Virus record (IMG/VR): IMGVR_UViG_3300032216_001508
Location: 1 to 42,327 of that record
DNA length: 42,327 nucleotides
Source of the DNA: a virus
Lineage: Duplodnaviria; Caudoviricetes
Direction: 5' to 3' (one strand)
Shown: positions 1 through 31,079 of the stretch, one piece after another
How positions within the stretch are numbered: the stretch's first letter is position 1
Layout: every line of letters starts with the position of its first letter
The notes under the pieces: generated by a model
Told to the model about the DNA's origin: nothing
Databases searched by the model: none
Seen by the model: only the letters and a program-made list of their open reading frames with translations
Translations under genes and position numbers: made by a program

Positions 1-33
<33 letters not shown>

Positions 34-38
34 CCTTC

Positions 39-265
39 CTATCGCGCGCAGTGGGCGTCGGCCATGCAGGTTTCAAAGTTTTTTCTGTGGACGCTTTTTA
101 TTTATGAGAATCTTCGCGCAGTTTCGGCGGATTGAGTTTCTATCGCGCGTTGTGGGCCTCGCGCTTGCAGGTTTCAAAGTTTTTTGCGTGAGTGCTTTTT
201 ATCTATCGCGCATTACACCCCTCGCCCTTGCAGGTTTCAAAGTTTTTTGCGTGAGTGCTTTTTAT
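39..265. repeat. Three degenerate copies of the cassette-boundary element with no gene between them
   Basis: TTGCAGGTTTCAAAGTTTTTTGCGTGAGTGCTTTTTAT is identical at 165-202 and 228-265 (63-bp period), with a degenerate copy at ~65-102. Each is preceded by a CTATCGCGC half-site. Confidence 0.9.
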
Positions 266-332
266 TTCTCGCGCGGGCCCGGGGAGAGCCGGGACTGGGG
301 CAGGTAAGGCCACCCCAGCCCCAGGCGATTAC

Positions 333-587
333 TTAGCCCTCAATGGGGGCTAGAAGGTCTTGTATGCCCTTGCGTACGTATGTCATCTGCCTAGAGGTAG
401 TCTGGCTGTACTTGTTCTCATTTATCCAGTATGCCCCGGCGTTGATGTCAATTTCAGCCATTTTAGTCCAGTACGAGTAAATCTCATAACGCCCCGCAAC
501 AATTTCGCCCCTGAGGTTAGACCCCTGAAACTCTTTTAGTGTTGCTATGTATTCTGCGCATTTGTTGTTTGCAATTCGCTTAGCCAT
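333..587 (-). CDS. Small phage early protein (KYSxTTS motif), 84 aa
   Basis: ORF with AGGAGAG RBS and its own cassette promoter. Confidence 0.8.
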   Translation of the reverse strand: MAKRIANNKCAEYIATLKEFQGSNLRGEIVAGRYEIYSYWTKMAEIDINAGAYWINENKYSQTTSRQMTYVRKGIQDLLAPIEG

Positions 588-677
588 TTTGAAACTCTCC
601 TAAATCTTGGTAGCAGGCGTTTCCCACTAACAACAGATTACCACAGTGCCTATCGCGCGTGCGCGATTAGGGGGGTT

Positions 678-792
678 TAAGGATTTCAGGGTTTTGACGC
701 TTACAACCGCCTGCCCTGAAATCCACCCGGGGTTATCCTGACCCCACCAGCAATACGGTTTGCCCTACTTACTTCGGTCTGCCGTATCTATA
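678..792 (-). ncRNA. Putative small structured RNA expressed from a cassette promoter
   Basis: Full promoter (812-827 plus TACACT), no RBS or ORF; stems at 753-758/782-787 and 681-691/714-724. Confidence 0.45.
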
Positions 793-876
793 ACCAGTGT
801 ACCATAGTCCCTATCGCGCGCGCGATAATGACCCGCTCGCAGTTTTCAGGTTTTTCTGCGAGGGGCATTTTTATAC

Positions 877-1029
877 CTATGCCCTTTCCACCACGAATAC
901 ATCAGAGCCGTTTCCTGCTTCTCGCCAGTCCATCATCTTGTAGATGAACTTGATGCCCTGCTTAGTGTTTGCTGAATCTACTTCCCACTGGAACTTTTCC
1001 CCAGTCCTTGTATTCCGTAACTGCCACAT
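877..1029 (-). CDS. Hypothetical micro-protein, 50 aa (MWQLRNTRTGEKF...), not in ORF track
   Basis: Manual translation; AGGAGAG RBS; fills its cassette. Confidence 0.8.
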   Translation of the reverse strand: MWQLRNTRTGEKFQWEVDSANTKQGIKFIYKMMDWREAGNGSDVFVVERA

Positions 1030-1181
1030 AATGCTCTCCTGTCTTTGGGGCTTTTCCCCGACATAAAAAGATTACCACGCTGCCTATCGCGCGCGCGATA
1101 ATTGACTGCCGCGAGGTTTCAAATAATCGCGCGTGTAACCTCAATAATCCGAGGTTTCAATGTTTTTTGCGAGGGAGGTTT

Positions 1182-1394
1182 TTATACCTCGGCTACCTCG
1201 AACTGTGCAACCTTCTGAGCCTGAACCTTCTTGGATAGTTCACTGTAACTCTTAGCCAGTCGGTCTTGTGAGTCAATGCCTTCCTTTAGGTACTCAATGG
1301 CAAACACTACTCCCCTTGATGAAAGTGCTGTGCTAATCATTCTGGCTTCATCTCGTGAAACCTGAATAGTTACTAGGTCTAATTCCTTTTGCAT
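1182..1394 (-). CDS. Hypothetical protein, 70 aa (MQKELDL...)
   Basis: AGGAGAG RBS before ATG 1394; cassette promoter. Confidence 0.8.
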   Translation of the reverse strand: MQKELDLVTIQVSRDEARMISTALSSRGVVFAIEYLKEGIDSQDRLAKSYSELSKKVQAQKVAQFEVAEV

Positions 1395-1555
1395 ACTGCT
1401 CTCCTGTTCTTGTGGGGCTTTTCCCACTACCAATACGATACCACATCTCGTATCGCGCGTGCGCGATAACCAGAGGCGGCGGATTTCAAATTATCGCGCA
1501 CATAACCCAGAAACTCCTGGGTTTTTAATGTTTTTTCTGTGAGGACTAACTATCT

Positions 1556-1684
1556 CTAGTGTCCTACGTAGTTCCTCATCTGCTCGGCGTAGTCTTTCCA
1601 GCCAAGTGCCTGTGCTTCACACTCTGCACACTGTCCTTCGTCATGGGTGTTGCCATTGAAACAGAATACGACTTCTTCTTCCAT
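1556..1684 (-). CDS. Hypothetical acidic micro-protein, 42 aa (MEEEVVFCFNG...; CxxC)
   Basis: Manual translation; AGGAGAG RBS. Confidence 0.75.
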   Translation of the reverse strand: MEEEVVFCFNGNTHDEGQCAECEAQALGWKDYAEQMRNYVGH

Positions 1685-1834
1685 ACTGCTCTCCTTAGTC
1701 TTGGTGTCTTAGTCCGGGGGTTTCCCCCCGAACTAAAACTTGTTTCACTTCAGGGTTTCTCTCCCTCTTGTGTAATACCAGTGTATCACTTGGTGTATCG
1801 CGCGCGCGATGATAACCCCTTTCGGGGATTTCAA

Positions 1835-1981
1835 TTATTGTGCCAATAGAACTTTCTCATACAGTTGGTCAAGCACTGCTCTTTGCGTTGGTGTCATCTC
1901 TGTCAGTCCACCAATGTAGTTGCTTCTTATGCTGTCCATGTAATCAAACAGTGCCTTCTGTGCTCTTTCGAGTTCAGTCAT
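1835..1981 (-). CDS. Hypothetical helical micro-protein, 48 aa (MTELERAQK...)
   Basis: Manual translation; AGGAG RBS; overlaps the end of the upstream gene. Confidence 0.7.
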   Translation of the reverse strand: MTELERAQKALFDYMDSIRSNYIGGLTEMTPTQRAVLDQLYEKVLLAQ

Positions 1982-2114
1982 CACTTTCTCCTACCCATGA
2001 CTCAAGCCATACAATGAGTTCGCCTATGCGCTTCTTGGCTTCCTCTGGCTTGCTTGTGTCTATCTGTGCTAGGTATTCTCTAGCCTTAGTGACTACGTTG
2101 GTCAGTTCTTCCAT
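1974..2114 (-). CDS. Hypothetical micro-protein, 46 aa (MEELTNVV...)
   Basis: Manual translation; TAATG stop/start coupling. Confidence 0.7.
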   Translation of the reverse strand: MEELTNVVTKAREYLAQIDTSKPEEAKKRIGELIVWLESWVGESDD

Positions 2115-2314
2115 TACCTTGCCTTCCAAGTCAAGATACCATGCTTAGCCGTCTGCATAGCGTGTTGTGCTACTTGCATAGCGTGGTCGCAGGCTTGTAC
2201 TCCGTACTGCTTCACACACTCTTTTCCCCCGACCGCAAAATTGTGAACCGCCTGTGCGTAGGTCAAACTGCATGAGTAGTAGAGGTGTGCGTGGTGACAG
2301 ATGTGGTCTCTCAT
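2114..2314 (-). CDS. Hypothetical His/Cys-rich protein, 66 aa
   Basis: ORF; TAATG coupling at both ends. Confidence 0.7.
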   Translation of the reverse strand: MRDHICHHAHLYYSCSLTYAQAVHNFAVGGKECVKQYGVQACDHAMQVAQHAMQTAKHGILTWKAR

Positions 2315-2535
2315 TACTTACGACCTCGCATTACAATCGTGTAGCCCAAGTTGATACCAGCCAAGAAACCGATAACACTAGGGATAATGCTTTCGACCCA
2401 TTGACGGACAACCGAGATGTCATTGAATGGGATAAGGCTCTGTGTCCAAAAGAATACAATCATTCCGCTTAGAACTCCCAGTGTCCAAACAAAATAGCGT
2501 TCGGCTGGTGTTCCCTTGTTGCTTCGTCTGCTCAT
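2314..2535 (-). CDS. Small membrane protein (two hydrophobic segments), 73 aa
   Basis: ORF, RBS, hydrophobic stretches. Confidence 0.75.
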   Translation of the reverse strand: MSRRSNKGTPAERYFVWTLGVLSGMIVFFWTQSLIPFNDISVVRQWVESIIPSVIGFLAGINLGYTIVMRGRK

Positions 2536-2797
2536 ACTGCTCTCCTTACTAAGTGGCTTGTTCCACTACTTCAAGTGTACACGACGCCTATCGCGCATGC
2601 GCGATGTATGTCAATCCTAGATTTCAAAATATCGCGCGTAATACCCCGTCACCCCCAGGGTTTGATTTTTTTTGTGTGGGGGCTTTTTATCTTTGATGAG
2701 AGCCACCTACGATTCGATTCTCGCCACTCAAATAAGAAAGTAATACCCTGGTATCCCCCCAAACCCGCAATACGCATCGCGCGGGGGGAGAGCGGGA

Positions 2798-2819
2798 GTC
2801 GGTGGGTAAGGCCACCGAC
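2798..2819 (-). terminator. GC-rich hairpin downstream of the DUF3846 gene
   Basis: GTCGGTGG-gtaagg-CCACCGAC; related hairpin at 295-318. Confidence 0.5.
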
Positions 2820-2835
2820 CCCCATGGGGTAAAAC

Positions 2836-3162
2836 TTATGCTGGCTGGTATTCGAGTAAGTACTTAACTTGCTCTTCAGATAGTCCGAGAGTGTTGCCCT
2901 CGTCATCTGTGCCACTGGTGAATACTGCGTTACCAACAATGATGTCAGTCTCGCCGTAAATGTCTTCCCATAGCCCTGTGGCTGTGGTGTTGAAAGGCAG
3001 GCTTTCCAACTTGCCTTCCTCGTTGCACCAGAGGTCTAGTTCTCCGAGTGGCACACACTGAACCCACCCTTCGACCGCTTCTTTGATTGTCTCGTAGCAG
3101 GTCTCGTTGGTGAACTCCACGACCTCTTTAAGGCCGTTTGTCTTGATGATGACCGCCTTCAT
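2836..3162 (-). CDS. DUF3846-like protein
   Basis: Pattern IKEAVEGWVQ...LWCNEEGKL..LP.N..AT...DIIVG. Confidence 0.8.
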   Translation of the reverse strand: MKAVIIKTNGLKEVVEFTNETCYETIKEAVEGWVQCVPLGELDLWCNEEGKLESLPFNTTATGLWEDIYGETDIIVGNAVFTSGTDDEGNTLGLSEEQVKYLLEYQPA

Positions 3163-3344
3163 TAGCGAACCACCGTAACTGTGTTTCCACGACGCTCAGG
3201 AACGTAGGTTGTCCAACGTAACTTGAGGTTGCTGGTGAGTAGTAGCAGGCGTGCTGTGCCAGTTGGGTTGACCTCAACTTTGATAATACGACCTGTAACT
3301 CCTGACTTCTGTGTTGTGTACTTCTGACCGACTTTGACTGTCAT
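3162..3344 (-). CDS. Small basic beta-rich protein, 60 aa (MTVKVGQKY...)
   Basis: AAAGGA RBS; cassette promoter. Confidence 0.75.
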   Translation of the reverse strand: MTVKVGQKYTTQKSGVTGRIIKVEVNPTGTARLLLLTSNLKLRWTTYVPERRGNTVTVVR

Positions 3345-3458
3345 GTCATTCCTTTCTCTCCGTACCGCTTGTCGGTACATAACCAGTGTATCATTGTGGC
3401 ATCGCGCGTGCGCGATATAACGGCAGCAGGATTTCTAAGAAACCCTGCCACCAGATTT

Positions 3459-3677
3459 TTACGCCTTGGCCAGTTGCTTTAACTTCTCGGCTCCGGTGAA
3501 GTACGCTTGGAGTGCTTCGTGAAGAAACATCTCCAACTGGTCACCGTCTCGGAAAAACATTGTAATTCCGTCTAGACGTAATACGACTGTGTCCTGCTTG
3601 TTGTCGTATAGAAAGTGAACTGCCTCAAACAACTTGTCGCCTTCTTTGACGTCTACATCAGTAGTAATTGTGGCCAC
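3459..3677 (-). CDS. Hypothetical protein, 72 aa
   Basis: ORF with AGGAGAG RBS, GTG start. Confidence 0.8.
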   Translation of the reverse strand: MATITTDVDVKEGDKLFEAVHFLYDNKQDTVVLRLDGITMFFRDGDQLEMFLHEALQAYFTGAEKLKQLAKA

Positions 3678-3839
3678 TGTGCTCTCCTCTGTTCTGTACT
3701 GCTTGGTGGCATTTCCACCTATAAATAATTTACCATAGTTGCTATCGCGCGCGCGATGTAATCGGCGGCCGGGGATTCTAAAAAACTATCGCGCGTGTAA
3801 CCCGTTGACTTCCGGGTTTTAATGTTTTGTCTGTGGCGA

Positions 3840-4721
3840 CTATTTATTTTCTTTGCCGAGAATGTAATCGCTGGCACTCTGCGCTCTGGCCACTGCCTTC
3901 ACCAACATCTTTGGTTCATTCTTGAGTGCCTTAAGCCAACTGGCAATGTAACTGGCCGAGTTGTCAATTGTGCTGGGGGCGATACCAGTCTCTGACGATA
4001 AGAACGCACTGGTGAACTCTGCGACTAATTCCTCTTCACTGTAGAGTTCACTGCCGAAGTAGTGGTTCTCAATTACGCCTTCACGATTGAGACGCTTCTC
4101 GTGTCCTGTGCTGTGACCCATCTCGTGGAATAGGGTTGCATAGAACGCTTCGTCACTAGTGAATGTCTCTGGCGTTGGAACCGTAATTCTGTCCTTGCTG
4201 GGTGAGTAGAACGCTCTATCTCCTGCATAGGTGATTGTGAGGTCTTGCTCTCGCTTGTAGTATCCGTCTACGACCTTCTGTGCCGATAGAATGACTTCTG
4301 CGTGTGCTCTGGCCTTAGGCTTCTCGTACGCTGGTGCTTCGGTTTCCCATTCGACCTGCTCTGCATTGAATACGGTGAAGTAGGTGACGATTACTGCCTT
4401 GCGTTCGACTTCTGTCTCTCCTTCGGTGACCTTGGTGTCAATGGACTTGTACAGAACTACTGGTGAACCCTTTTCGCCTTTGCGGACACTGCCACCCATG
4501 GCTTTGACCTGCTTGAACGTTCCCCACCATGGTGACTCGAACTCTTTGGCCATAGCGGTGAATGAGAGTAGCCAGTGATTAATCCCGGTGTATGGCTTCT
4601 TGGTACTGAGTGACCTTGGTACGTATCCGCTGGACACCCACTCTTTTCTCCAAGGTGCTGTGCCCTGTTCTAGTTGGTCAATGATTGTCTGTGCTACTAC
4701 TGCGTATGCATTGGTTGTCAT
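3840..4721 (-). CDS. ardC: ArdC-family antirestriction protein (ssDNA-binding domain plus zincin-like domain)
   Basis: PW..W...P.S..T.KPYTGIN, WGTFKQ...GG.VRKGEKG, HEMGH, YS.EELVAE motifs. Confidence 0.9.
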   Translation of the reverse strand: MTTNAYAVVAQTIIDQLEQGTAPWRKEWVSSGYVPRSLSTKKPYTGINHWLLSFTAMAKEFESPWWGTFKQVKAMGGSVRKGEKGSPVVLYKSIDTKVTEGETEVERKAVIVTYFTVFNAEQVEWETEAPAYEKPKARAHAEVILSAQKVVDGYYKREQDLTITYAGDRAFYSPSKDRITVPTPETFTSDEAFYATLFHEMGHSTGHEKRLNREGVIENHYFGSELYSEEELVAEFTSAFLSSETGIAPSTIDNSASYIASWLKALKNEPKMLVKAVARAQSASDYILGKENK

Positions 4722-4825
4722 GTGCTCTCCTTCGGCTTGTCCGATACCATCAGTATAGCAGGGCTGCCTATCGCGCGCGCGATGTATGCGCAGCAGAGGG
4801 TTTTAATTTTTCTGCTGGGCGTGGA

Positions 4826-5227
4826 TTACCACCAACTGTCGTAATAGATTTCCATGTCTTGGGCAATAGCCTTCATAGCCTTGTCTATGAACTCCAGTGT
4901 TTCGGTGTCGTGGTCAGGGTCGCTTGTTCCAAAGAAGAAACCAACGGTCTGTGGAAGTCTGTTGTTCATCACTGCCTGCTTCAAGTCTTTGAGGTCTTGA
5001 AAGGTTAGACGTACTGGCGAGCAGTTAAATGTTCCTTCCCCGCCCTTTTTTTCGTACAGTGCTTCCATGTATCCCTGAAGGTTGGCATGCTTACGCCATT
5101 GAGCAAGCATAAACATACTTTGCTTATGTTCATCTTGATTAATTTTCTCAGAGTCATTCCAGTAGATGTAGAGGTCTGTGTTCTGTGGGTGAGGCATTAC
5201 TGCGTATGCGTATTGGTCGAGACCCAT
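4826..5227 (-). CDS. Phage hypothetical protein (MGLDQYA...WRKH..L.G.M...YYDSWW)
   Basis: ORF, RBS; pattern recalled from other phage proteins, function unknown. Confidence 0.8.
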   Translation of the reverse strand: MGLDQYAYAVMPHPQNTDLYIYWNDSEKINQDEHKQSMFMLAQWRKHANLQGYMEALYEKKGGEGTFNCSPVRLTFQDLKDLKQAVMNNRLPQTVGFFFGTSDPDHDTETLEFIDKAMKAIAQDMEIYYDSWW

Positions 5228-5389
5228 GTTTTCTCCTTGTTGCTGTGGCTTGTTCCACTACAAACACTTTACCACGCCGCCTATCGCGCGTGCGCGATGT
5301 TGCGGCCCAGAAGAATTAAAAAAGTTATCGCGCATGGCAGCCGCATCAGCCGCAGTTTTCATAGTTTTCTGCGTGAGGGCTTTTTATCT

Positions 5390-5923
5390 TTACAAGTGAG
5401 TGAAGTAACCAGTGAGGTCTGCTTCGATGACGGTCTGCTCGTTAGCCAGTTGTATGTCATCTTCCAGCAGTCGTGTTGTATCAACCACGTACTCATTTTC
5501 GTTTCGGCGGTCAAACTTACCCAGTACCAAGATACTTGGGATAGTTATCTCATAGACGTTGCTAGGCCACATGGTCTTGAACCGACCAGCGAACCACTTG
5601 GCTTTGCTGTAACTGCTAGTCCAAGACATACCTTCTTTGTGGTCATCAGCACAACCACGATAGAGAGTAATGAACTCTGACAGTGTGTCGTAACTAATCA
5701 ACTCACCCTCGTCACCAAGAATGAACTGGCAGTCCGTTGCCTTGTCAAAGAGTATCTGCCATACCTCGTTGTCGGCTTGGAACGCAGGCCATTCACACAT
5801 TGTCCAAGAGTCTGCTAAGCCTTTAGCAATCTCGGCTTGGTCTAATTGACCTATGTTATTTACAAGCACCCTAAGCATGTCATTACGACCTACCCTTGCA
5901 CTTACCTCTGCCCACGTAGCCAT
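5390..5923 (-). CDS. Putative R-S-E type ADP-ribosyltransferase-fold protein
   Basis: TLYRG, SWTSS and ENEYVV in canonical order. Confidence 0.5.
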   Translation of the reverse strand: MATWAEVSARVGRNDMLRVLVNNIGQLDQAEIAKGLADSWTMCEWPAFQADNEVWQILFDKATDCQFILGDEGELISYDTLSEFITLYRGCADDHKEGMSWTSSYSKAKWFAGRFKTMWPSNVYEITIPSILVLGKFDRRNENEYVVDTTRLLEDDIQLANEQTVIEADLTGYFTHL

Positions 5924-6102
5924 TAGAAGCCCGCCGATGTCATGGCTTGGATAAGTGTCTCGATGTCGTCATTCAACATCTCTGTCATTGTGTGACCTAT
6001 GCAGTTGTTACGGCGTTCAACAAGGTCATCTATGGCTTTCAAGAAGTCAGCCTTAGTCCACTTGCTTACATCTACCCACTCTTTAATAAATCCTGTACGC
6101 AT
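5923..6102 (-). CDS. Hypothetical protein, 59 aa (MRTGFIKE...)
   Basis: GGGAG RBS; coupled to the downstream gene. Confidence 0.75.
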   Translation of the reverse strand: MRTGFIKEWVDVSKWTKADFLKAIDDLVERRNNCIGHTMTEMLNDDIETLIQAMTSAGF

Positions 6103-6188
6103 GTTCTCCCCTTTTCGTTGTGGCTTATCCACTACCAATACATTACCACACTGCACATCGCGCGTGCGCGATACAACCCTTTCGGGTT

Positions 6189-6383
6189 TTAGTTAATTTT
6201 GTTATAGCAAAGATTACACTCAACAGTTTCTTCACCGCCACCGCCTAGCCATGAGCAAGCGATAGAGTTCATTACTTCTTTAGCCATTTTGCCAAAGTGT
6301 CTAATGAAACAAGTAGGGCAGTAAAGAATTGGTGTTCCGTGTGCTGCGGTTTCGTACACCGCAAATCCAGTTACCCTAGTCAT
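6189..6383 (-). CDS. Small putative Zn-binding protein (CPTC...CNLC), 64 aa
   Basis: ORF; two CxxC motifs. Confidence 0.7.
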   Translation of the reverse strand: MTRVTGFAVYETAAHGTPILYCPTCFIRHFGKMAKEVMNSIACSWLGGGGEETVECNLCYNKIN

Positions 6384-6516
6384 AATACCCAAACTCTTGA
6401 AACACTGCTGTACGAGCGTAGTCAAGTTGTCTGTTTAGTTCAGCAATCTCCTCATCAGTCAAGTTGTTGTCAGTGTCAAACCACTCAACTAATTTCTCTC
6501 TAGTTACTAACTCCAT
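6376..6516 (-). CDS. Acidic micro-protein, 46 aa (MELVTREKL...)
   Basis: Manual translation; TAATG coupling. Confidence 0.7.
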   Translation of the reverse strand: MELVTREKLVEWFDTDNNLTDEEIAELNRQLDYARTAVFQEFGYYD

Positions 6517-6842
6517 TAGAACTCACCTTCAATCTTCTCAAGTATCTCACTAAGGTCGGACTTCTTTGCCCGGCGTTCTAGTTCTGCCATCTGCTCCGGT
6601 GTCATGGCTTCTAACTTCTCCATGCCGTCTTGAACGACTTCTTGCAAGCCTTGTGAATACTCAAGGAACTTGCCAACTAGTTTTTTGTACTTCTCACTAA
6701 TGAATTGCAGTTCAAGGTCATTGACATCTTCTTGCCAAGACTCATAGACACTGCCAGCCATGTTCCAAACTGCACAGGCAACCATTTCCATTTCTTCTTG
6801 GTCGAAAGTTGGTCCTGCAACGAGTTCCGGTTCTTCTGCCAT
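6516..6842 (-). CDS. Highly acidic helical protein, 108 aa
   Basis: GGGAG RBS before MAEEPEL. Confidence 0.8.
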   Translation of the reverse strand: MAEEPELVAGPTFDQEEMEMVACAVWNMAGSVYESWQEDVNDLELQFISEKYKKLVGKFLEYSQGLQEVVQDGMEKLEAMTPEQMAELERRAKKSDLSEILEKIEGEF

Positions 6843-6980
6843 ACTGCTCCCTTTTACTTTTACTTCCACCGGCTTATCCGGCTACCACCAGTGTACCAAA
6901 TCGGCTATCGCGCACGCGCGCGATGGCGGGTTTGCGGTTTTTATAGTTTTTTGTGTGGCGACTTTTTATCTTTAATAGAC

Positions 6981-7023
6981 ACCACCGGTCAGCGTTCGGG
7001 GGGAATTGAACGCCGACCAGTGG
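6981..7023 (-). terminator. Long hairpin after the VWA gene
   Basis: ACCACcGGTCaGCGTTC...GAACGCcGACCaGTGGT. Confidence 0.5.
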
Positions 7024-7048
7024 TAGGCAAGGGGTTAGCCTTTACTGT

Positions 7049-8464
7049 CTAAACTCTTTCCAACTTTCCTTGCGTACCGCCTTGTGCCTTAGTCAGATAG
7101 ATACCTACGAACCCTCTGACCTTGCTCTTGCTCGCTCTCGGTGCTTTCAACATCTCCACCGCTTCGTCAGTGTCGGGGGTGACTAGAACCTTGTGCTTCT
7201 TAATCAACTTGGCACAGGCTTCTGCACCGGCTTCGTACACTTGGTCACCGCTACCAGTAACCATTCCGTCAGTGACCCAAATAACCGGCTCTGAACCTCT
7301 ACGCTTGCCAATAGCCCAGTCAAGTGCCGGGCCATCTACGCCGTTGCCATAGCCGTATGGAATACCATTAAGGCTACTAACACGCTTACCTCGGTCTGCA
7401 AGTATCCAAGCATTAGGGTGCTTTGACTTACTACGATTAGCCGAGTAGCCCATAATCAACGCACCGGGGGCAGTGTCTACCATTTTCTCTATCTGTTCGA
7501 TAGATAGACTCATAGAACCCGATAGGTCAAGCAACACAATACCGCCACTGTTGCGTGGCTTCTGACTAAAGATACGCTTTTCGGGGTCGGTCAGTAGTCG
7601 GCTAGGGTAGGCAATTCGCTTGCCGATAGGACTAGCCTTCTTACGTCTAGCCAAGTGACCCTTGACCTGCTTATCCAACTTAACCACGTTACTGATAATC
7701 AACTTTGCCCAAGCGTTGTTGCCGGTAGGCATGTCGATACCACTGTTATTGAAGTCGGGTGTACTACCACTGTTTTGCTTTAGGTAGCCACTGATAATTC
7801 CGGCTATGTTGCCGGTGTAACTAGAGAAACCGTATGGCAACTGTCCTACTGTGTTGCCATTGTCGTCTTGGATAGACTGCGCACTGGCGTATGCCAAGTT
7901 GTTTGCACTGTTGCTCCTAATGACCTTAGTGACTTCCTTCTCCATCTCACGTAGGTCAGTAGCCCATTCCTTATTGACACCACGAACGCCGGTAATGAAC
8001 TGACGGAACGCCTTAGTACCGATTAACGCTCCACCGCCTTTAATCATCATGTCATAGGCTTTCTCTGAACCTTCTTTTGCCAGTCGCTTGCCAGTCTCCT
8101 TCTCACTGCCGTCAAGCAGTAGGTCGGTGTTGTAGCCCAACTTCTTAGAGACTGCATTGACACGCACCTCTTCGGCACTCATAATCACGTCAGCGTCAAG
8201 CCCATTGTTTTCAGCCCATGCTTGAACTGCCACTGGGTCTATTGGACTAATCTTGGCGTGGATAAGTTCGTGAGTACGAACCGCTTGTGCCACGTCATCA
8301 TTTATCAGTGGAACTTGAATGTGCTTATCGGTGAAGTTAGTCCAAGCCTGACCTCGCTCCGTAAATCCTTCTGTGACTGTCCAGCGTTCGCTGTTACCGT
8401 CAGGTCGGCTACCTACGATAATTTCAGGATAGACGACTACTTCTGCCTTCTTAGCCTTAGCCAT
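7049..8464 (-). CDS. HExxH metallopeptidase-like plus VWA domain protein, 471 aa
   Basis: HELIH; DLSGSM MIDAS motif; VIWVTDG. Confidence 0.75.
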   Translation of the reverse strand: MAKAKKAEVVVYPEIIVGSRPDGNSERWTVTEGFTERGQAWTNFTDKHIQVPLINDDVAQAVRTHELIHAKISPIDPVAVQAWAENNGLDADVIMSAEEVRVNAVSKKLGYNTDLLLDGSEKETGKRLAKEGSEKAYDMMIKGGGALIGTKAFRQFITGVRGVNKEWATDLREMEKEVTKVIRSNSANNLAYASAQSIQDDNGNTVGQLPYGFSSYTGNIAGIISGYLKQNSGSTPDFNNSGIDMPTGNNAWAKLIISNVVKLDKQVKGHLARRKKASPIGKRIAYPSRLLTDPEKRIFSQKPRNSGGIVLLDLSGSMSLSIEQIEKMVDTAPGALIMGYSANRSKSKHPNAWILADRGKRVSSLNGIPYGYGNGVDGPALDWAIGKRRGSEPVIWVTDGMVTGSGDQVYEAGAEACAKLIKKHKVLVTPDTDEAVEMLKAPRASKSKVRGFVGIYLTKAQGGTQGKLERV

Positions 8465-8616
8465 TGTAAAACCCCTTTTACTATTGCAGTACGCTTGTCG
8501 TACTACTGAATAAATACTACCACAACGGGCTATCGCGCGCGCGATATGACCTTCCTTAAAAAATCTAAGGAAAGCATGGGGGCAGAGAATTAACCCTGCC
8601 CCCACTAGGGTAAAAC

Positions 8617-9372
8617 TTACAGTGAGAGTGATGACGGACTAGAGACTGAACCTAGTCGCCCAATTCTTACTGCTTCGATAATTGCTTCTGCTCGTACCTT
8701 GCCAAACGTCATCTCGGCAGAGCGTTCCTCTTGCATGCCGTTGGTAATCAACTGCTGAAACGCATAGAAGGCTCGCAGTGATACTCGGCGTTCCGGTTCG
8801 GCAGAGATAACTGCTGTTGCAACTGTACGTAGGTGTTCCGGCAACTTAGCCAACGCTTCGGGGTGCGGAGCGTTAATCTCAATAGCCACCGGGAAACGGT
8901 CACGAAGTGCAATAGGCAAGTCGTCAGGGTGTTCTATGTTGCTAGTAATCACCGCAGAGAAACCTGACTTAGGTGTAACTACTTCACCGGTGTCGGGGTT
9001 CTGCCAACTAGAACTGGCAACGCTGTCGAGGAAGTTAAGTAACTGTCCTTGAACGTCACCACTAGCCTTGTCACCTTCGTCTACTACCAAGCGACCACCT
9101 GCTCGCCAAGCCTGAACTGCTTTGCCTTCGGAGAATGTCCAGTTGTCGCCGTTAGGCTTCCACGTACCTTCTATGTCGGCAGAGGTCATGTCCTCGGTGC
9201 AAGTCAGACGGAATACACCGTTACCAACGTTACCGTAGGTCAGACCACCAAACGTCTTACCAGTTCCCGGCGCACCGTAAAGTACAACTCGGTCAATACC
9301 ACACTGCAATACGTCATGGAAGTCTTGCCAGCATTTAGCCATTGGCAATCCTGTGTTGTTAATGTAACTCAT
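8617..9372 (-). CDS. MoxR/CbbQ-like AAA+ ATPase
   Basis: GAPGTGKT Walker A, LVVDE Walker B, ALRDRF arginine finger, SLR sensor. Confidence 0.85.
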   Translation of the reverse strand: MSYINNTGLPMAKCWQDFHDVLQCGIDRVVLYGAPGTGKTFGGLTYGNVGNGVFRLTCTEDMTSADIEGTWKPNGDNWTFSEGKAVQAWRAGGRLVVDEGDKASGDVQGQLLNFLDSVASSSWQNPDTGEVVTPKSGFSAVITSNIEHPDDLPIALRDRFPVAIEINAPHPEALAKLPEHLRTVATAVISAEPERRVSLRAFYAFQQLITNGMQEERSAEMTFGKVRAEAIIEAVRIGRLGSVSSPSSLSL

Positions 9373-9542
9373 ACTTTTTACCCTTTCGTAAAAGTGTCAC
9401 TTCCGGCTTGTCCGGAGAGCAACGTAAAAACATTACCACAAATCCTATCGCGCGCGCGATTATAAAAACCTATAAATTAAAACAACCTATAGGTAAAGCC
9501 CTCGCAGTTTTCATAGTTTTTTGCGAGGAGTTTTTTTATTTA

Positions 9543-9791
9543 CTATCCCACGTAGCGGACATACAACTTAAATCCGCCACCCTTAGTGATGTATCGGCGT
9601 TCCCACTCTTCACCCTTAAATACCTTAGGGGCAACCTGTGGTTTGCCTTCGTTAATAATCAAAGCCCATTCGCCGGGCTTGGCCATAATTTCGTTGGCCA
9701 TGGCCTGCCACTTTGTTGCACCGTTATGTGGTGGTGCTTCCCATCTGATGCTTTGCATAACTATCCTTTCATAGTTGTTACTGTTATACAC
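9543..9791 (-). CDS. Hypothetical protein (PGEWA...LYVRY)
   Basis: ORF within a cassette; start uncertain. Confidence 0.7.
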   Translation of the reverse strand: MYNSNNYERIVMQSIRWEAPPHNGATKWQAMANEIMAKPGEWALIINEGKPQVAPKVFKGEEWERRYITKGGGFKLYVRYVG

Positions 9792-9808
9792 CTTAGCAGA
9801 ACTAACGA

Positions 9809-10090
9809 CTACTCGTCAATTCCATGAAACATGGTCTCTGCAGCCATTCTTAAAGTATTGCTGATGTTAGGACTCATAATCACTGTGCTCTCTTTAACTA
9901 CGTAAGAAACGCCACCAATGTTACTGCCTTCACCATTAATCTCAAAGACCCAAGACCATAGACTTTCACCCTTATCTAACTTGTTATTCAGTTCCTTTAA
10001 CTGAGACATAGGTAGCGTACTGGTATCAAACAGTACCATGTTATCTGCTTGTCCGAAGTTGCCTGCTTTATCTAAGTACACTAATGCCAT
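9809..10090 (-). CDS. Hypothetical protein, 93 aa (MALVYLDK...)
   Basis: AAGGA RBS; first gene after the rightmost cassette promoter. Confidence 0.7.
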   Translation of the reverse strand: MALVYLDKAGNFGQADNMVLFDTSTLPMSQLKELNNKLDKGESLWSWVFEINGEGSNIGGVSYVVKESTVIMSPNISNTLRMAAETMFHGIDE

Positions 10091-10497
10091 TGTTGTTGCT
10101 TCCTTTTCTATTGCTCCCAGAACTTGCTCCCAGAAGGCGTACCGAAATTGTATCATACCTGGTCATCGCGCCCGCGCGATTAGAGGAAATCAAAAACCCC
10201 TAAAAATCTCGCGCATTTTATTGACCACAAACCGTCCTGGTTTTCAATTAGTTTTGTGTGTGAGAATTTTATATTTGAATTTTCGCGCGGGTCATGCGCT
10301 TTTTAGTGCTAGAATAAACCTGCGATTGGTACAAATTCTGGCAGTTTTCATATAATTCTTTGTGGGATAATTATATTATTAATTGATTATGTACCGTTAG
10401 TGGTTTAAAGGGTACCCTATACGCGTGCGAAGGGACGTTTATTGGTGTGAAAGCATCATTTCTCTCTCAAAACCCTTTAATAATCGGTTTCTAATAC

Positions 10498-10638
10498 TTA
10501 GAACTCATCCTGTTTGTAGTCTTTAAGTGCACTAGTGAACTGTTTATACAAATAATTCATGTAATTAGCCAGTTCAGTCTTGTCCATCTTCTCTAAGTCC
10601 TCTTGATTAAGACCGTATCTGCGTGGTTCTTCTATCAT
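10498..10638 (-). CDS. Hypothetical micro-protein, 46 aa (MIEEPRRY...)
   Basis: Manual translation. Confidence 0.55.
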   Translation of the reverse strand: MIEEPRRYGLNQEDLEKMDKTELANYMNYLYKQFTSALKDYKQDEF

Positions 10639-10779
10639 AACTGACCACTTTCAATAATCGCTGCTAGGCAACAGATAAACACTATCAAAATAGCAACCTT
10701 CATAGGCCAGTAATCCCTGCTAACAATGCCAAAGTTATCGTTACTAGGCTTACTACTATTGCCCATACTATTTCTCGCA

Positions 10780-11013
10780 TTATTCCGCCTGTTCTTTCAA
10801 GAACTCATTAATCAACCGTACTACGTCATTAATGGCCCAGTTATACACTATCCCATTGTTAGTAGTACCACTTGGCCATGTTTGTCCATCTTCGAAGGGG
10901 AACCTTAGTTCTCTTACCTTAGTCTTTAATGTCTCTATCTTTGATAAAGGTATGAGTGTTCCGGGGTCTTCTGGATTCTTCCCCCCCGAAAAATTTTGGA
11001 CGGACTCTTCCAT
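10780..11013 (-). CDS. Hypothetical protein, 77 aa
   Basis: ORF, TAATG coupling. Confidence 0.7.
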   Translation of the reverse strand: MEESVQNFSGGKNPEDPGTLIPLSKIETLKTKVRELRFPFEDGQTWPSGTTNNGIVYNWAINDVVRLINEFLKEQAE

Positions 11014-11237
11014 TACTCTTCTGATTCAGCCTCTACGTCATCCCAGTTCTGGTCTTGCTCTGCGAACTGGCCGCCTAGGTCAGATAGTAGTTCAGACACG
11101 ATTGGGATATCGGCAATGTCGGCACCCTTTTCTACGGCATTTTCCATGCCCTCAAGGATTGCTGCAACCATTCCCATAACCATCATTGATTGGCCACGGG
11201 TGATTGTGTAGGTAAATTCGTCTAGTGGGTTTGACAT
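11013..11237 (-). CDS. Acidic hypothetical protein, 74 aa
   Basis: ORF, TAATG coupling. Confidence 0.7.
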   Translation of the reverse strand: MSNPLDEFTYTITRGQSMMVMGMVAAILEGMENAVEKGADIADIPIVSELLSDLGGQFAEQDQNWDDVEAESEE

Positions 11238-11416
11238 TAGTTTAGTCCTGTCTGTTGTCGGATTAATTCTTCTGATTTATTTAGTAATTCCATTGATTCT
11301 AGCAACCCCGGTTCCCCGTATTTAACGTAGGACTCATGGGTTAGGTACTGCGCAATACTGATAGCACCAAGAACGGCGTTTAATTCTTCTCCATTGAGTT
11401 CTAAACTATGGTTCAT
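11237..11416 (-). CDS. Hypothetical protein, 59 aa (MNHSLELNGEEL...)
   Basis: Manual translation; AGGGA RBS. Confidence 0.65.
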   Translation of the reverse strand: MNHSLELNGEELNAVLGAISIAQYLTHESYVKYGEPGLLESMELLNKSEELIRQQTGLN

Positions 11417-11624
11417 TACTTCCCTTTCTTACAAGTGCAATTTCCACCGCAAGGGCAGTCCTTTTTGGGGGCTGTGGACTTTTGGTAGATACCATCTTTA
11501 ACGCCTTGACTAAACATGTGGATAAAGAAACCCACTGCCATGAAGAATAAAGCCGGTAATAGGAATACTAATAAAACGTGCATTTTCTGCTCTTTTCTGG
11601 GGTTCTTTTCCCCCCGCCAAAAAA

Positions 11625-11653
11625 TAGTACACCCTACATCTGGGGGCTGTCAA
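11625..11653 (-). promoter_or_regulatory. Canonical sigma70-type promoter
   Basis: TTGACA-N17-TACTAT on the minus strand. Confidence 0.65.
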
Positions 11654-11736
11654 GTACCTCATGCTGTTTGCAAAAAGGCGAGTACCATGTGCTTTGGAGG
11701 TAAAAAAGTAAAACCCTTTAATATTAGGCTTTTCAA

Positions 11737-11782
11737 AGTACCCAAAAGTACCTTTTGGAGTACCTTTTGGGGGGTACTTTTG
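11737..11782. repeat. Clustered AGTACC direct and inverted repeats
   Basis: AGTACCTTTTGG x2 (11747-11770); CAAAAGTACC/GGTACTTTTG inverted pair. Confidence 0.6.
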
Positions 11783-13405: not shown

Positions 13406-13529
13406 GTGTCCAAGTTGCAAGGCAACCGTTAGGGCAATAGCAACCGAAGTTACCCATCGTTGCCCGTCAAACAAAAACCAAACTACAAGATTTTTGTTGC
13501 AAGAAACCTTGACTAAAGACAAAAATTAG
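13392..13529 (+). CDS. Small Zn-ribbon-like protein (CPSC...HRC), 45 aa
   Basis: GGAG RBS. Confidence 0.55.
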   Translation: MKEFKCPSCKATVRAIATEVTHRCPSNKNQTTRFLLQETLTKDKN

Positions 13530-13537
13530 CCTACAAT
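13509..13537 (+). promoter_or_regulatory. sigma70-type promoter of the putative ncRNA
   Basis: TTGACT-N17-TACAAT. Confidence 0.7.
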
Positions 13538-13543
13538 AAACAA

Positions 13544-13730
13544 TTGTCTAGCCGTGACTTACGCGCACACTCTTAAGTGCACGGTTTTTCAAGTTAAAGG
13601 GTCCTTCTAACCCATTCCCTTTAACAAGACAAGTCCGGTAGTGGTGGCACCTTCGAGGAACGAATATAGCCACTGCTACCGGATTACCTCTTAGAAAGCA
13701 GAATAGGGGCCGGTTTCCCGGCCCCTATCT
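13544..13730 (+). ncRNA. Putative structured ncRNA, ~185 nt
   Basis: Own promoter, several nested helices, no convincing ORF, terminal hairpin. Confidence 0.6.
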
Positions 13731-13751: not shown

Positions 13752-14447
13752 TTAATCTAGGTTAATAATACCTGAAGCCCACGATGGCTCAATTGCTGGA
13801 CCCATCTCTTGCATTTTTGCAGAAAAAAGATTTCTAGCAATTTCAATTTGTGCTTCAGACAACCTAAGGTCTTGGCTCAAAATAATTGCCATGAAAGCAG
13901 TTCCAACAAGTTGTGCTTGGTGTTCTTCCAATTCAATTACTCGTTTACGCAAGTCGTACTTCATCATAAATTCAAGTGAGCCTTGATATCTATCCCAGGC
14001 TCTTTCGATTATTTCGATTAATGCACGAACATGCTCAACGCCAGCCTTATCGGTTACTTCAAGTATTCCGTTAAGTTCACTAAGTTTGTCTTCAAGAATT
14101 AAAGACCATGCTTTCATTTTTCCAGCAAGTTGAAATGCCTCTACTTCGGGTGGACCTAATGGTTCTGGTTCTCCAAGACGTTCAGCCAATGTAGCAAGTT
14201 CTTTTTTCATTTGAACTTGTACAGCGCTTTTAACGTGATTTATTGAAGTGCCAAAATGCCATTTACATCTTCCTTCACCAAAATGTTCCGTTCCCATTCC
14301 TGCGGTTTTGACACAATAACGTTCAAAACCTAGTTCTTTTAACTCTTTGTTTCTGAGTTTTGCCCCGCACTTGCCCTCAAGGGGCTTGGCACTACCCGGA
14401 ATTTTATCATCGGGATAATGTTGCTCCCATAGTTCTTCATTTGTCAT
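13752..14447 (-). CDS. HGGxSTG-like Zn-binding domain protein, possible terminase small subunit
   Basis: CGAK...C...AG.GT.H.G.GRCKWHFG followed by a helical C-terminal region. Confidence 0.5.
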   Translation of the reverse strand: MTNEELWEQHYPDDKIPGSAKPLEGKCGAKLRNKELKELGFERYCVKTAGMGTEHFGEGRCKWHFGTSINHVKSAVQVQMKKELATLAERLGEPEPLGPPEVEAFQLAGKMKAWSLILEDKLSELNGILEVTDKAGVEHVRALIEIIERAWDRYQGSLEFMMKYDLRKRVIELEEHQAQLVGTAFMAIILSQDLRLSEAQIEIARNLFSAKMQEMGPAIEPSWASGIINLD

Positions 14448-20050: not shown

Positions 20051-21079
20051 ATGGCAAAGAAGTCATCGTCCAGAAACTCACTTGATTCAATCATTGATGA
20101 GATTAATAAACAATTTGGCGTAGGTTCAATCATGCGCCTGAACGGGGATGATGTTGTTCCTGTTGAAGTAATACCAACTGGAATTCTTCCACTTGACATT
20201 GCCCTTGGTGTCGGTGGTTTGCCTAAGGGTCGCATTATTGAAATGTATGGACCGCCTTCAAGTGGTAAGTCAACATTGTCATTGCACTCAATTGCAGAAG
20301 CACAAGCACTTGGTCTTGTTTGCGCATACATTGATGTTGAACATGCATTTGACCCTGTGTATGCAACGGCAATTGGTGTTGATGTTGGCTCTTTAATTTT
20401 TACTCAACCAAACAATGCTGAGCAGGCTCTTGAAATGGCTATTCGTTTAGTTGGTAGTGGAGAAATATCAATTGTTGTTATTGACTCTGTTGCTGCTTTG
20501 GTTCCTCGCGCCGAACTTGAAGGCGAAATGGGTGATGCACACGTTGGCCTTCAGCCAAGAATTATGGGTCAAGCACTTCGAAAGATTATTGGTGCCGCGT
20601 CAAAGACGGACACCATTGTTATCTTTATCAACCAGTTGCGCGAGTCAATTGGAAAGATGTATGGGCCAAGTGAATACACACCTGGTGGAAAGTCACTTGG
20701 TTACGCCGCTTCTGTTCGACTAGACATTCGCCGTATTCAAACTATTAAAAAAGGAGAGGAAGCAACTGCTAACCGAACTCGTGTAAAAGTAGTTAAGAAC
20801 AAAGTTGCTGCACCGTTTAGGCAAGCAGAGTTTGATTTGGAATATGGTGTTGGTGTTCCAAAAGCAAACGCACTTCTGGACTGTGCAATTGACTTTGGCG
20901 TGCTTCGCCAATCAGGAGCATGGATTTATTATGAAGGCGAACAATTTGCCAACGGACGAAACAAAGCCAAGCAAAAAATTGAAGAGTCACCGGAACTCTA
21001 CAACCAAATTTACAAGCAAGTTATTTCAATGATTAATGATTTGCCAGAAGGAGATATCAATGTCGAAGACCAAGAATAA
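20051..21079 (+). CDS. recA: Recombinase A
   Basis: LDIALG.GGLP.GRI.E.YGP.SSGKST; IDSVAALVPRAE.EGEMGD..VGLQ.R; KNKVA.PF. Confidence 0.97.
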   Translation: MAKKSSSRNSLDSIIDEINKQFGVGSIMRLNGDDVVPVEVIPTGILPLDIALGVGGLPKGRIIEMYGPPSSGKSTLSLHSIAEAQALGLVCAYIDVEHAFDPVYATAIGVDVGSLIFTQPNNAEQALEMAIRLVGSGEISIVVIDSVAALVPRAELEGEMGDAHVGLQPRIMGQALRKIIGAASKTDTIVIFINQLRESIGKMYGPSEYTPGGKSLGYAASVRLDIRRIQTIKKGEEATANRTRVKVVKNKVAAPFRQAEFDLEYGVGVPKANALLDCAIDFGVLRQSGAWIYYEGEQFANGRNKAKQKIEESPELYNQIYKQVISMINDLPEGDINVEDQE

Positions 21080-21299
21080 CAACAACTTAAACAGAAAAAT
21101 TGTTAACGAAGAACTCGTTGTTAAGTCTGTAAGGCAGTGGTACAAAAAGAACACCTTTGGACCCAGTTACCGAGATTTGTCAAAATTAACTGAATTGTCA
21201 GTCGGAACGGTGTACAATATTTGTCACGACCTGAGAGAAGCGGGCGTGTTACAGTTCCAAGATAGTGTCGCAAGGACAATTAAATTAAAGAAAGAGTGA
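21060..21299 (+). CDS. LexA-like N-terminal winged-HTH protein, no peptidase domain
   Basis: GPSYRDL....LS..TV.....L...G.L......ARTI. Confidence 0.7.
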   Translation: MSKTKNNNNLNRKIVNEELVVKSVRQWYKKNTFGPSYRDLSKLTELSVGTVYNICHDLREAGVLQFQDSVARTIKLKKE

Positions 21300-29603: not shown

Positions 29604-31079
29604 CTATTGTGCTGTAAATGGCCCTACTTGTGATGCTTGAGATGTTCCACCCGGCACCAAAATTATACCAACACCAGAGCCTTTAGTGCCAGTATTTGTT
29701 GAAGAAACCGTAGCATTTGACGTAGTTGCAGCGGTATCGCTATATCCAGTTGCGGTAACATTATTACCACTTGTAGTTACACTAACTGCATTTATACTAG
29801 GTGTATTACTATATGCAACAACCGCTGCGCTACTTGCAACCGTTGTAATAGTAGATGAAACGTTTTTAATAAGGTTTAAAACCCAATTCCATTGAGTACT
29901 ATAGTTTGGTGAAGTTGTACAGCAGGAATTTGAAGCGCAGTTGTTTGAACCCGTGCAACATGCGCTTGAGGCACAGTTGTTTGAACCCGTGCAACAGGCG
30001 TTGTACGCACCTGCGTAGTTTGACCCGGTGCAACAAGCGTTGTACGCACCTGCGTAATTAGCGCCTGTGCAACAAGCGTTGTATGTACAAGTGTTTGAAC
30101 CTGTGCAACAAGCGCTTGAGGCACAGTTGTTTGCTCCAGTGCAACAAGAGTTGTATGTTCCGGCATAGAATGTTGCACCACAAGTTGCGCTGTATGTGCA
30201 GTTTGAAGAACCCGTGCAACAACCGCTGTAAGTGCAAGTGTTTGTACCATAACAACAAGAACTGTAAGAACCTGCGTAGTTTGACCCGGTGCAGCATGTA
30301 CTGTAAGAACCACCGTATTTACCAGAAGCACCGCATTTTGATGAAGTAGTGCAGTTGTTAGATATACCACATTTTGTAGAAGCACCACAAGTATTTGCTC
30401 CTGTACAACAACCACTTGATACGCAGTTGTTTGAGCCCGTGCAACAAAGGTTTGGTGAACCACCAGAATAAGCGGCACCACAAGTAGCACTTGCAGAACA
30501 GTTATTTCCACCAGTACAGCAGGCGTTATAGGCGCAGTTGTTTGAACCTGTGCAACATGCGCTTGAGGCGCAATTGTTTGACGCTCCGCAAGTGCTACTT
30601 GATGCACAGTTGTTGGCAGCACCGCAAGTGGCACTAGGAGAACAACTGTTTGCGCCAGTACAACATGCGTTGTAGGAGCAATTATTTGCGCCTGTGCAGC
30701 ATGCGTTTGCGTTACATGAGTAACTAGAAATGTAAAGCGATGTAGAACCTGATGAAGCAGCAGCCCACCAGTCATTAGCCCCAGATTGCCAGAAAACAAT
30801 TCCACTTCCAGAAGGTGCTGATTGAACGGTTGCGGTTACGTTTTGATTGTATGGCGTTGTGGCAAATGGGTAACTTGAAGCAGCGGTTGCAGTAACGGCA
30901 ACTCCGCTGTTTGAGTACCACGTACCGTTTGTCTGTGTCCAGACGTTTCCTGTTGTGGCGTTACCCAAAGAACCAGATGTTGTACGCGCAAAAGTGTCTT
31001 TAATTTTAACACCGAAATTGCTTATAAAACCGTAGGCCTGATTAGAAAGGCCGCTAAATGTATCTCTTAATGGTGCCAT
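29604..31079 (-). CDS. Cys-rich 12/13-aa repeat protein with beta-rich flanks, probably virion surface
   Basis: ~22 repeats of the type xxxCCTGSNNCx. Confidence 0.8.
   Translation of the reverse strand: MAPLRDTFSGLSNQAYGFISNFGVKIKDTFARTTSGSLGNATTGNVWTQTNGTWYSNSGVAVTATAASSYPFATTPYNQNVTATVQSAPSGSGIVFWQSGANDWWAAASSGSTSLYISSYSCNANACCTGANNCSYNACCTGANSCSPSATCGAANNCASSSTCGASNNCASSACCTGSNNCAYNACCTGGNNCSASATCGAAYSGGSPNLCCTGSNNCVSSGCCTGANTCGASTKCGISNNCTTSSKCGASGKYGGSYSTCCTGSNYAGSYSSCCYGTNTCTYSGCCTGSSNCTYSATCGATFYAGTYNSCCTGANNCASSACCTGSNTCTYNACCTGANYAGAYNACCTGSNYAGAYNACCTGSNNCASSACCTGSNNCASNSCCTTSPNYSTQWNWVLNLIKNVSSTITTVASSAAVVAYSNTPSINAVSVTTSGNNVTATGYSDTAATTSNATVSSTNTGTKGSGVGIILVPGGTSQASQVGPFTAQ

Follow-up and report, generated by a model that had tools for sequence, protein, structure and literature searches.

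What reads a family of CG-rich palindromes that stand before small genes at one end of a phage genome? The question is raised by virus record IMGVR_UViG_3300032216_001508, whose stretch of 42,327 bases (48% complete; hereafter the window) carries 15 such palindromes, each just upstream of a −10 box. A preliminary description had presented them as promoters in which a purine-pyrimidine palindrome replaces the −35 region and DNA structure may be the selected trait. We found that the repeating unit is the heptamer ATCGCGC, with paired inverted copies 0, 2 or 4 bp apart beside every window promoter. With about even confidence, we read the palindromes as operators at which a single sequence-specific protein binds, likely a repressor of phage origin that would close the predicted early genes. 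The observation itself is real and conserved; the genome-fixed polarity of the half-sites and the doubled depth of the block bearing them are new points.

The pattern ATCGCGC-N(0-4)-GCGCGAT gave 15 matches at 652-10180 and none elsewhere in the window (0.00 expected; maximum 0 across 100 shuffles). This agrees with the confinement of the array to the left ~10 kb, beyond which a consensus promoter scan detected TTGAC promoters at 11653-11624 and 13509-13537. The palindromes measure 14 bp (7 copies), 16 bp (7) or 18 bp (1), thus changing in 2-bp steps, and purine-pyrimidine alternation is intact in 14/15, the exception being 10165. On the minus strand, the gap to a TAnnnT box is 10 bp (2 copies), 11 bp (10) or 12 bp (3), against a chance background of 0.034 per site for such a box at 10-12 bp, and the box is TG-extended in all modules except 2590 (14/15). 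All of these points had been described correctly. The reported absence of any TTGACA-like hexamer holds insofar as 0/15 modules yielded a −35/−10 pair in the scan, but at 2590 a TTGACA lies immediately before the palindrome, where its distance from the −10 box is too great for pairing. A ribosome-binding site and then a small open reading frame (ORF) usually follow the −10 box, but, as a correction to the earlier description, the promoter at 813 precedes no ORF of at least 40 aa before the next module. The data support the view that the window's predicted early promoters form a class of their own that lacks a −35 box. Downstream of the predicted promoter at 813 lie ~130 non-coding, self-complementary bases (670-800, minus) and no gene.

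Three features had been overlooked: lone half-sites, a T-rich box and a leader hairpin. Nine lone ATCGCGC copies occur in the window, farther upstream of the promoters than the paired ones and every one on the plus strand, and outside the block the heptamer is absent both from the window (0 vs. 1.2 expected) and from a complete relative, G002 (0 vs. 7.5 expected). The T-rich box is separated by ~29 bp from the left end of the palindrome; measured from the left ATC, the distance is 28-30 bp for the 14-, 16- and 18-bp palindromes alike (11/15 by pattern); since this distance is constant despite the change in palindrome length, the left half-site is the reference point. The box recurs 28-33 bp after ATC in the window, G005 and G001, is less sharp in G003 and is hardly seen in G002 and L056. 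The leader hairpins, of the form G[RNANG]C with varied stems and an A-rich five-base loop (G[ANANG]C), follow most −10 boxes, have a density of 1.22 per kb in the block vs. 0.16 outside, mostly lie 4-13 nt past the −10 box (e.g., modules 1086, 3744, 4770, 6157, 6907 and 8532) and recur in G002, G005, G006 and G007. Their placement supports the predicted start sites as real. The hairpin may be a 5′-end stabiliser or a protein site.

Relatives were found by scanning viral and metagenome contigs; a metagenome locus had to hold at least two palindromes to be retained, which left 11 of at least 122 loci. L069, identical to the window's first 14.9 kb, was not counted; G004 and other G005 duplicates, as well as G008 (which matches G003 in aligned proteins), were left out of the tallies, and one G001 copy was counted twice via a terminal overlap. 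Across G001, G002, G003, G005 and L056 (7-30 copies each), the palindrome is 16 bp, ATCGCGC-NN-GCGCGAT, in 98/99 copies. The length variation is hence peculiar to the window phage, which speaks against DNA structure as the main explanation. Both central positions take all four bases across relatives, and the arms are invariant, being identical in the window and G001 although the core proteins are only 47% identical. The distance from the palindrome to the −10 box is kept within 1 bp inside each phage: 11 bp in the window, 12 in G001, 14 in G005, 15-16 in G002 and 24-25 in G003. Several G003 palindromes have TTGAC boxes downstream, and G006 bears a shorter form, TCGCGTACGCGA, upstream of TTGACA-17-TAnnnT promoters. 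The palindrome takes the place of the −35 region in the window, as described, but these two relatives indicate that the CG element is not simply a −35 substitute.

To compare polarity, all records were turned to the window's core-gene orientation (G000 denoting the window). Lone ATCGCGC copies ran forward:reverse 9:0 in the window, 10:0 in G005, 21:4 in G002, 51:4 in G003, 4:1 in G001 and 38:5 in L056; for the wider word TCGCGY, the ratios were, in the same order, 14:0, 8:2, 28:8, 49:9, 12:3 and 35:4, with 18:4 in G006 and 5:3 in G007. The lone half-sites share one genome direction in 8/8 array-bearing phages. The block genes are read leftward in three phages (the window, G005 and G001) and rightward in five (G002, G003, G006, G007 and L056); despite the opposite gene direction, the left-to-right gene order is roughly alike, and the core-gene tree requires at least two changes of gene direction. 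The 877-1029 cassette is absent from L138, with the junction in the palindrome region, a contig of run X3 skips from 831 to 1138, and gene order is shuffled among relatives. Judging from these junctions, cassettes are lost at the palindrome, the modules apparently serving as crossover points. Two cassettes, 881-1049 and 2836-3159, show 92-94% protein identity to G005, where most block genes show 40-76%, which suggests recent exchange.

The ~11.4-kb block containing all these sites is likely a long direct terminal repeat present twice per virion genome, as indicated indirectly by contig depth. In run X1, which may be the sample of origin, the contig covering 236-11481 has a depth of 22.9 and no differing letters, and the flanking contigs have 10.1 and 11.2; in X3, long contigs over the block reach 23-27 vs. 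10-13. The block/flank ratio is about 2 in X1 and X3, 1.4-2 in X4, 1.2-1.9 in X5 and X6 and about 1 in X2. The contig breaks at 11454-11481 in X1 and the record starts at the left array, contigs being unable to show physical ends.

The structural explanation of the array is that of a Z-DNA or cruciform switch, where negative supercoils would flip the CG run and thereby gate the promoter. Incoming linear DNA, however, is relaxed, and transitions and 2-bp slippage preserve alternation by default. We applied a single-site energy model (dinucleotide energies from PMC3024258, Table 1, plus two further constants, K and the junction twist), in which the window's 15 copies ranked first to fifteenth as its lowest-energy Z sites, favourable from about sigma −0.045 and flipping at −0.05; no site flipped at sigma −0.03. 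In the same model, CC or GA centres cost only ~1-3 kcal/mol. Furthermore, across the eight array-bearing phages, alternating runs of at least 10 nt have 3 to 12 times the density inside the block that they have elsewhere, with lengths of up to 24-26 nt in G002, G006 and L056. Selection on structure nevertheless lacks support as the main explanation. Related phages do carry arrays, but alternation, kept in 25/26 copies of G001, 18/21 of G003 and 10/15 of G005, survives in only 10/30 of G002, 3/7 of L056 and 0/5 of L156; the centre breaks it in 20/30, 5/15, 4/7 and 5/5 copies of G002, G005, L056 and L156, respectively, so that broken centres dominate in G002, L056 and L156. The abundant lone heptamers fall below the minimum Z-run of 8 bp used in PMC3024258, and they are polar, whereas a symmetric structure predicts no polarity. 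The Z-alpha profile PF02295 matched 0/5 records, but controls likewise gave no match; the winged-helix candidate discussed below is nearer by fold to LexA than to Z-alpha and lacks the Asn/Tyr/Trp signature that marks Z-alpha. Given the alternation-breaking centres, the polarity of the lone heptamers and the relaxed incoming DNA, we consider the switch quite unlikely; a protein-binding site, offered earlier as an alternative, fits better. Of the other alternatives offered, a CG-methylation or restriction decoy is unlikely, as depletion of CGCG outside the block is only about twofold, in contrast to GATC and AGCT, which are missing altogether, and no C5 methyltransferase was detected in 3/3 complete relatives. 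Hypervariable slippage does not agree with palindrome lengths that are equal at four orthologous sites of L138.

If a protein reads the sites, it might be an activator, host or virion-borne, standing in for the missing −35 contact as at the T4 MotA box, which lies about 12 bp from the −10. The lack of a −35 where the site overlaps the −35 position, the spacing fixed within each phage and the arms shared by the window and G001 all agree with this. Against it, the spacing varies from 11 to 25 bp across phages, a shift that a repressor tolerates but an activator would not; the near-consensus TTGAC-17-TAnnnT promoters of G003 and G006 should need no activator; and the bacterial genomes searched contain no array: all 80 listed of 97 GTDB hits were single matches (7-13 bp spacing), and 7/151 Acidimicrobiia genomes had 1-3 copies, with no host regulon. 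We therefore regard an activator as unlikely. The half-site polarity could instead reflect a one-way signal for handling terminal-repeat DNA (entry, protection of the leading end or duplication at packaging), with promoter contact being secondary. Polarity follows the genome map in 8/8 array phages though gene direction differs and has changed at least twice on the core-gene tree, and promoter-less units cluster at the block's left edge. Yet two changes of direction are few, the palindrome keeps a fixed distance to the −10 in each phage, nearly all block sites are intergenic, array-less relatives exist, and head-to-tail repressor binding would lock polarity as well; we consider such a signal quite unlikely. 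A combined form, also unlikely in our estimate, is a one-way track of CG blocks along the first-injected terminal repeat, coupled to the early promoters and read by a protein or by torsion-driven Z-flipping at entry or repeat duplication, which would keep polarity fixed on the genome while the intervening genes turn round. Finally, the palindrome might be a recombination repeat without a reader of its own, spread by cassette shuffling and gene conversion like the promoter-early-stem-loop (PeSL) elements; the cassette missing from L138 with its junction at the palindrome, the contig skipping it in X3 and the shuffled gene order accord with that. But between phages with 47% protein identity the flanks have diverged without constraint and the 7-bp arms have not changed, a stretch of 14-16 bp offers little length for homologous recombination, and the heptamer is absent outside the block of G002, which makes this explanation improbable.

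The repressor reading would work as follows. Once the repeat enters the cell, host RNA polymerase would start at the extended −10 boxes, a promoter type that works without a −35, and ArdC would be made in a burst along with other small proteins. Later, a phage protein would coat the half-sites and block the polymerase, thus shutting the predicted early promoters together; bound proteins lining up head to tail would yield the shared polarity. The absence of an array from the bacteria searched favours a phage-made protein. A putative, unproven binder, and the best candidate, is the LexA-like protein encoded at 21057-21299, present in 8/8 distinct phage records covering the locus. Its model has a predicted local distance difference test score (pLDDT) of 89, and its best folds are LexA DNA-binding domains (E 0.004-0.009; template-modelling score 0.67-0.72).

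Several observations weigh against a repressor, or against this candidate. The candidate's operon has no upstream site, its gene is also found in the array-less G009, and changes in the motif are not matched by changes in its recognition helix; no helix-turn-helix, ribbon-helix-helix or other DNA-binding family was found among the block proteins scanned, though small proteins may escape profiles. Spacers of 0, 2 and 4 bp should not all suit a rigid dimer, the position of the sites upstream of the −10 box is one typical of activators, and the spacings between half-sites are not helically phased (Rayleigh p 0.4-0.5, 71 distinct values). Relative to pure CG, the fillers of G006 and G007 carry 55 transitions and 5 transversions, keeping alternation at 55/60 changed positions, and transitions make up 64-77% of the differences in contigs matched to the window; the excess over this range is unexplained by a plain operator, the fillers not being mutually independent. 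In addition, G009, L361 and L362 have the same gene block with no TCGCG array and with other linker words.

As to those linkers, AGCTCGC- and GATC-rich tandem words plus A-tracts occupy the place of the CG array in L361 and G009. GATC and AGCT are absent or nearly so from the window, G002, G003, G005-G008, L056 and L363 and occur at normal frequency in G001, G009, L361 and L362; G009 encodes a C5 methyltransferase. The gene block of G002 also holds two parS-type sites (37439 and 42709), with none in the other four records tested.

The window encodes WhiB, an Rpf-type transglycosylase, RecA, SSB, ERF and YqaJ, a gene set that points to a likely actinobacterial host. Naming the host via RecA led to no assignment, since its identity was 50-60% to Acidimicrobiia and likewise 55% to two bacteria outside that class. 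The genomes of complete relatives measure 78-96 kb, and G002 has sheath and baseplate genes; among cultured phages, none is close (terminase ~32-34% identity; no match for the AAA protein or the linker DNA). The block comprises small orphan genes, ArdC and an AAA ATPase, most ORFs being without a family, and in relatives the block also includes anti-restriction genes of ArdA-like or other types. Scans for Rfam families and tRNAs gave no match.

Just beyond the block's right edge, AAGTACC repeats (11652-11779), clustered also in G002, G006, G007, G009 and L056, may be operator, origin or packaging repeats. A role of the palindrome as a terminase site was rejected, given this separate repeat and a putative small terminase that is only a weak lead. 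The latter is the protein of 13752-14447 (minus), 70-79% conserved in close relatives and carrying a Cys/His motif, whose nearest named clusters are small terminase subunits; in relatives, it is distant from the large terminase gene. At 13509-13730 (plus), a TTGACT-17-TACAAT promoter is followed by ~190 non-coding bases ending in a strong hairpin, with no Rfam match, possibly a small RNA. The 491-aa protein of 29604-31079 (minus), with many cysteine-rich repeats and no Pfam match, lies amid collagen-like tail-fibre genes. The poly-C run that makes up bases 1-30 of the window is probably an artefact. Coordinates are collected in Table 1.

Table 1. Array modules and associated genes of the window; palindrome and −10 box positions are given on the record's numbering.
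Feature	Coordinates	Strand	Details
Block with all palindromes and half-sites, small early genes (predicted)	31..11481		likely long direct terminal repeat, from contig depth
Tandem promoter-less units, left tip	41..300	+	ATCGCGC at 41, 142, 205, each then GGTTTCA and T-tracts; also in L138
Module 1	635..667	-	TAATCT 635-640; 16-bp palindrome 652-667
Module 2	796..826	-	TACACT 796-801; 14-bp palindrome 813-826; no ORF of 40 aa downstream
Module 3	1069..1099	-	TAATCT; 14-bp palindrome 1086-1099; lone half-site 1126; cassette missing in L138
Module 4	1435..1467	-	TATCGT; 16-bp palindrome 1452-1467; lone half-site 1493
Module 5	1780..1810	-	TACACT; 14-bp palindrome 1797-1810
Module 6	2574..2605	-	TACACT without TG extension; 16-bp palindrome 2590-2605; lone half-sites 2631, 2776
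Module 7	3385..3416	-	TACACT; 16-bp palindrome 3401-3416
Module 8	3727..3757	-	TAAATT; 14-bp palindrome 3744-3757; lone half-site 3788
ArdC-type anti-restriction gene	3840..4721	-	Pfam PF08401 E 3e-32, PF18818 E 4e-37
Module 9	4752..4783	-	TATACT; 14-bp palindrome 4770-4783; ahead of ArdC gene
Module 10	5266..5298	-	TAAAGT; 16-bp palindrome 5283-5298; lone half-site 5327
Module 11	6140..6172	-	TAATGT; 16-bp palindrome 6157-6172
Module 12	6890..6924	-	TACACT; 18-bp palindrome 6907-6924
471-aa ORF, after AAA_5 gene	7049-8464		no family match
Module 13	8514..8545	-	TAGTAT; 14-bp palindrome 8532-8545
AAA_5 ATPase gene	8617..9372	-	PF07728 E 8e-14
Module 14	9430..9460	-	TAATGT; 14-bp palindrome 9447-9460; ahead of AAA ATPase gene
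Module 15	10147..10180	-	TACAAT; 16-bp palindrome 10165-10180, centre breaks alternation
Stand-alone LexA-like winged-helix protein, candidate binder	21057..21299	+	behind recA; 80 aa

To our knowledge, early-gene shut-off and repeat duplication in phages with long terminal repeats are poorly understood. With its short invariant word and a candidate protein, the array family lends itself readily to binding and promoter tests, and natural variants exist in which the site overlaps the −35 position, lies upstream of a −35, is altered to TCGCGT or is absent. If the polarity that stays fixed on the genome despite gene flips is due to DNA entry or packaging, it would represent a new kind of cis-signal.

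In the literature searched, as far as the accessible text of the sources goes, we found no account of the ATCGCGC palindrome array. Several known systems share some of its traits, and the likenesses and differences below refer to the accessible parts of the reports cited. The PeSLs of T4-type phages are intergenic promoter modules with AT-rich upstream DNA and stem-loops that flank small orphan genes and serve as crossover points (PMC2839356, PMC4122927). The window shares with them the repeated intergenic early promoters, here predicted to be read by the housekeeping sigma factor of the host, and the cassette loss at a module (L138; X3, 831-1138). However, the phage is not T4-like (WhiB, RecA, ERF, YqaJ; complete relatives 78-96 kb), its promoters have no −35 box, and a sequence-invariant palindrome with polar half-sites is undescribed there. 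Terminator stem-loops, a PeSL feature, gave four linker matches on the plus strand, with 15 found vs. 14.2 expected in the region. The myovirus SPO1 has a terminal block of ~11.5 kb of small genes with strong promoters and ribosome-binding sites (PMC6873191, PMC3896407), similar to our ~11.4-kb block of small genes likely present twice per virion; no such operator array is described for it, the window's host is likely actinobacterial, and the two are compared by layout, not gene homology. The invariant short arms and free 2-3 bp centre are reminiscent of the inverted repeats of two actinophage groups, the Cluster O mycobacteriophages (PMC4351075) and the Microbacterium cluster EG phages (PMC7302621), which have 10-34 copies, are absent from hosts and are proposed dimer sites. 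The EG copies lie upstream of genes at the genome end, as in the window block, whereas Cluster O sites are mostly away from promoters, a third being in genes, and the window sites adjoin promoters. The motif sequence of these repeats differs from that of the ATCGCGC array (EG being compared by description, not motif letters), and polar half-sites are undescribed for them. Unlike MotA-box-type sites, the array keeps no fixed −10 distance, 10-12 bp in the window but 12-25 bp across relatives. In the Reg576 establishment regulon of plasmid p576, several promoters, that of ardC among them, have direct and inverted heptamers about their −35 region, and expression after DNA entry is transient (PMC6294495). 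The window likewise has repeated heptamer sites at promoters including that of ardC, but it belongs to a phage and not a plasmid, its motif differs, and, whereas the Reg576 repressor is encoded in the cluster and self-controlled, no DNA-binding family was found among the block proteins scanned, with the caveat on small proteins given above. By the criteria of each, the array falls outside the PeSLs, the Reg576 regulon and MotA-type sites. By analogy, it would work like a Reg576 regulon set in an SPO1-like terminal module with PeSL-like shuffling.

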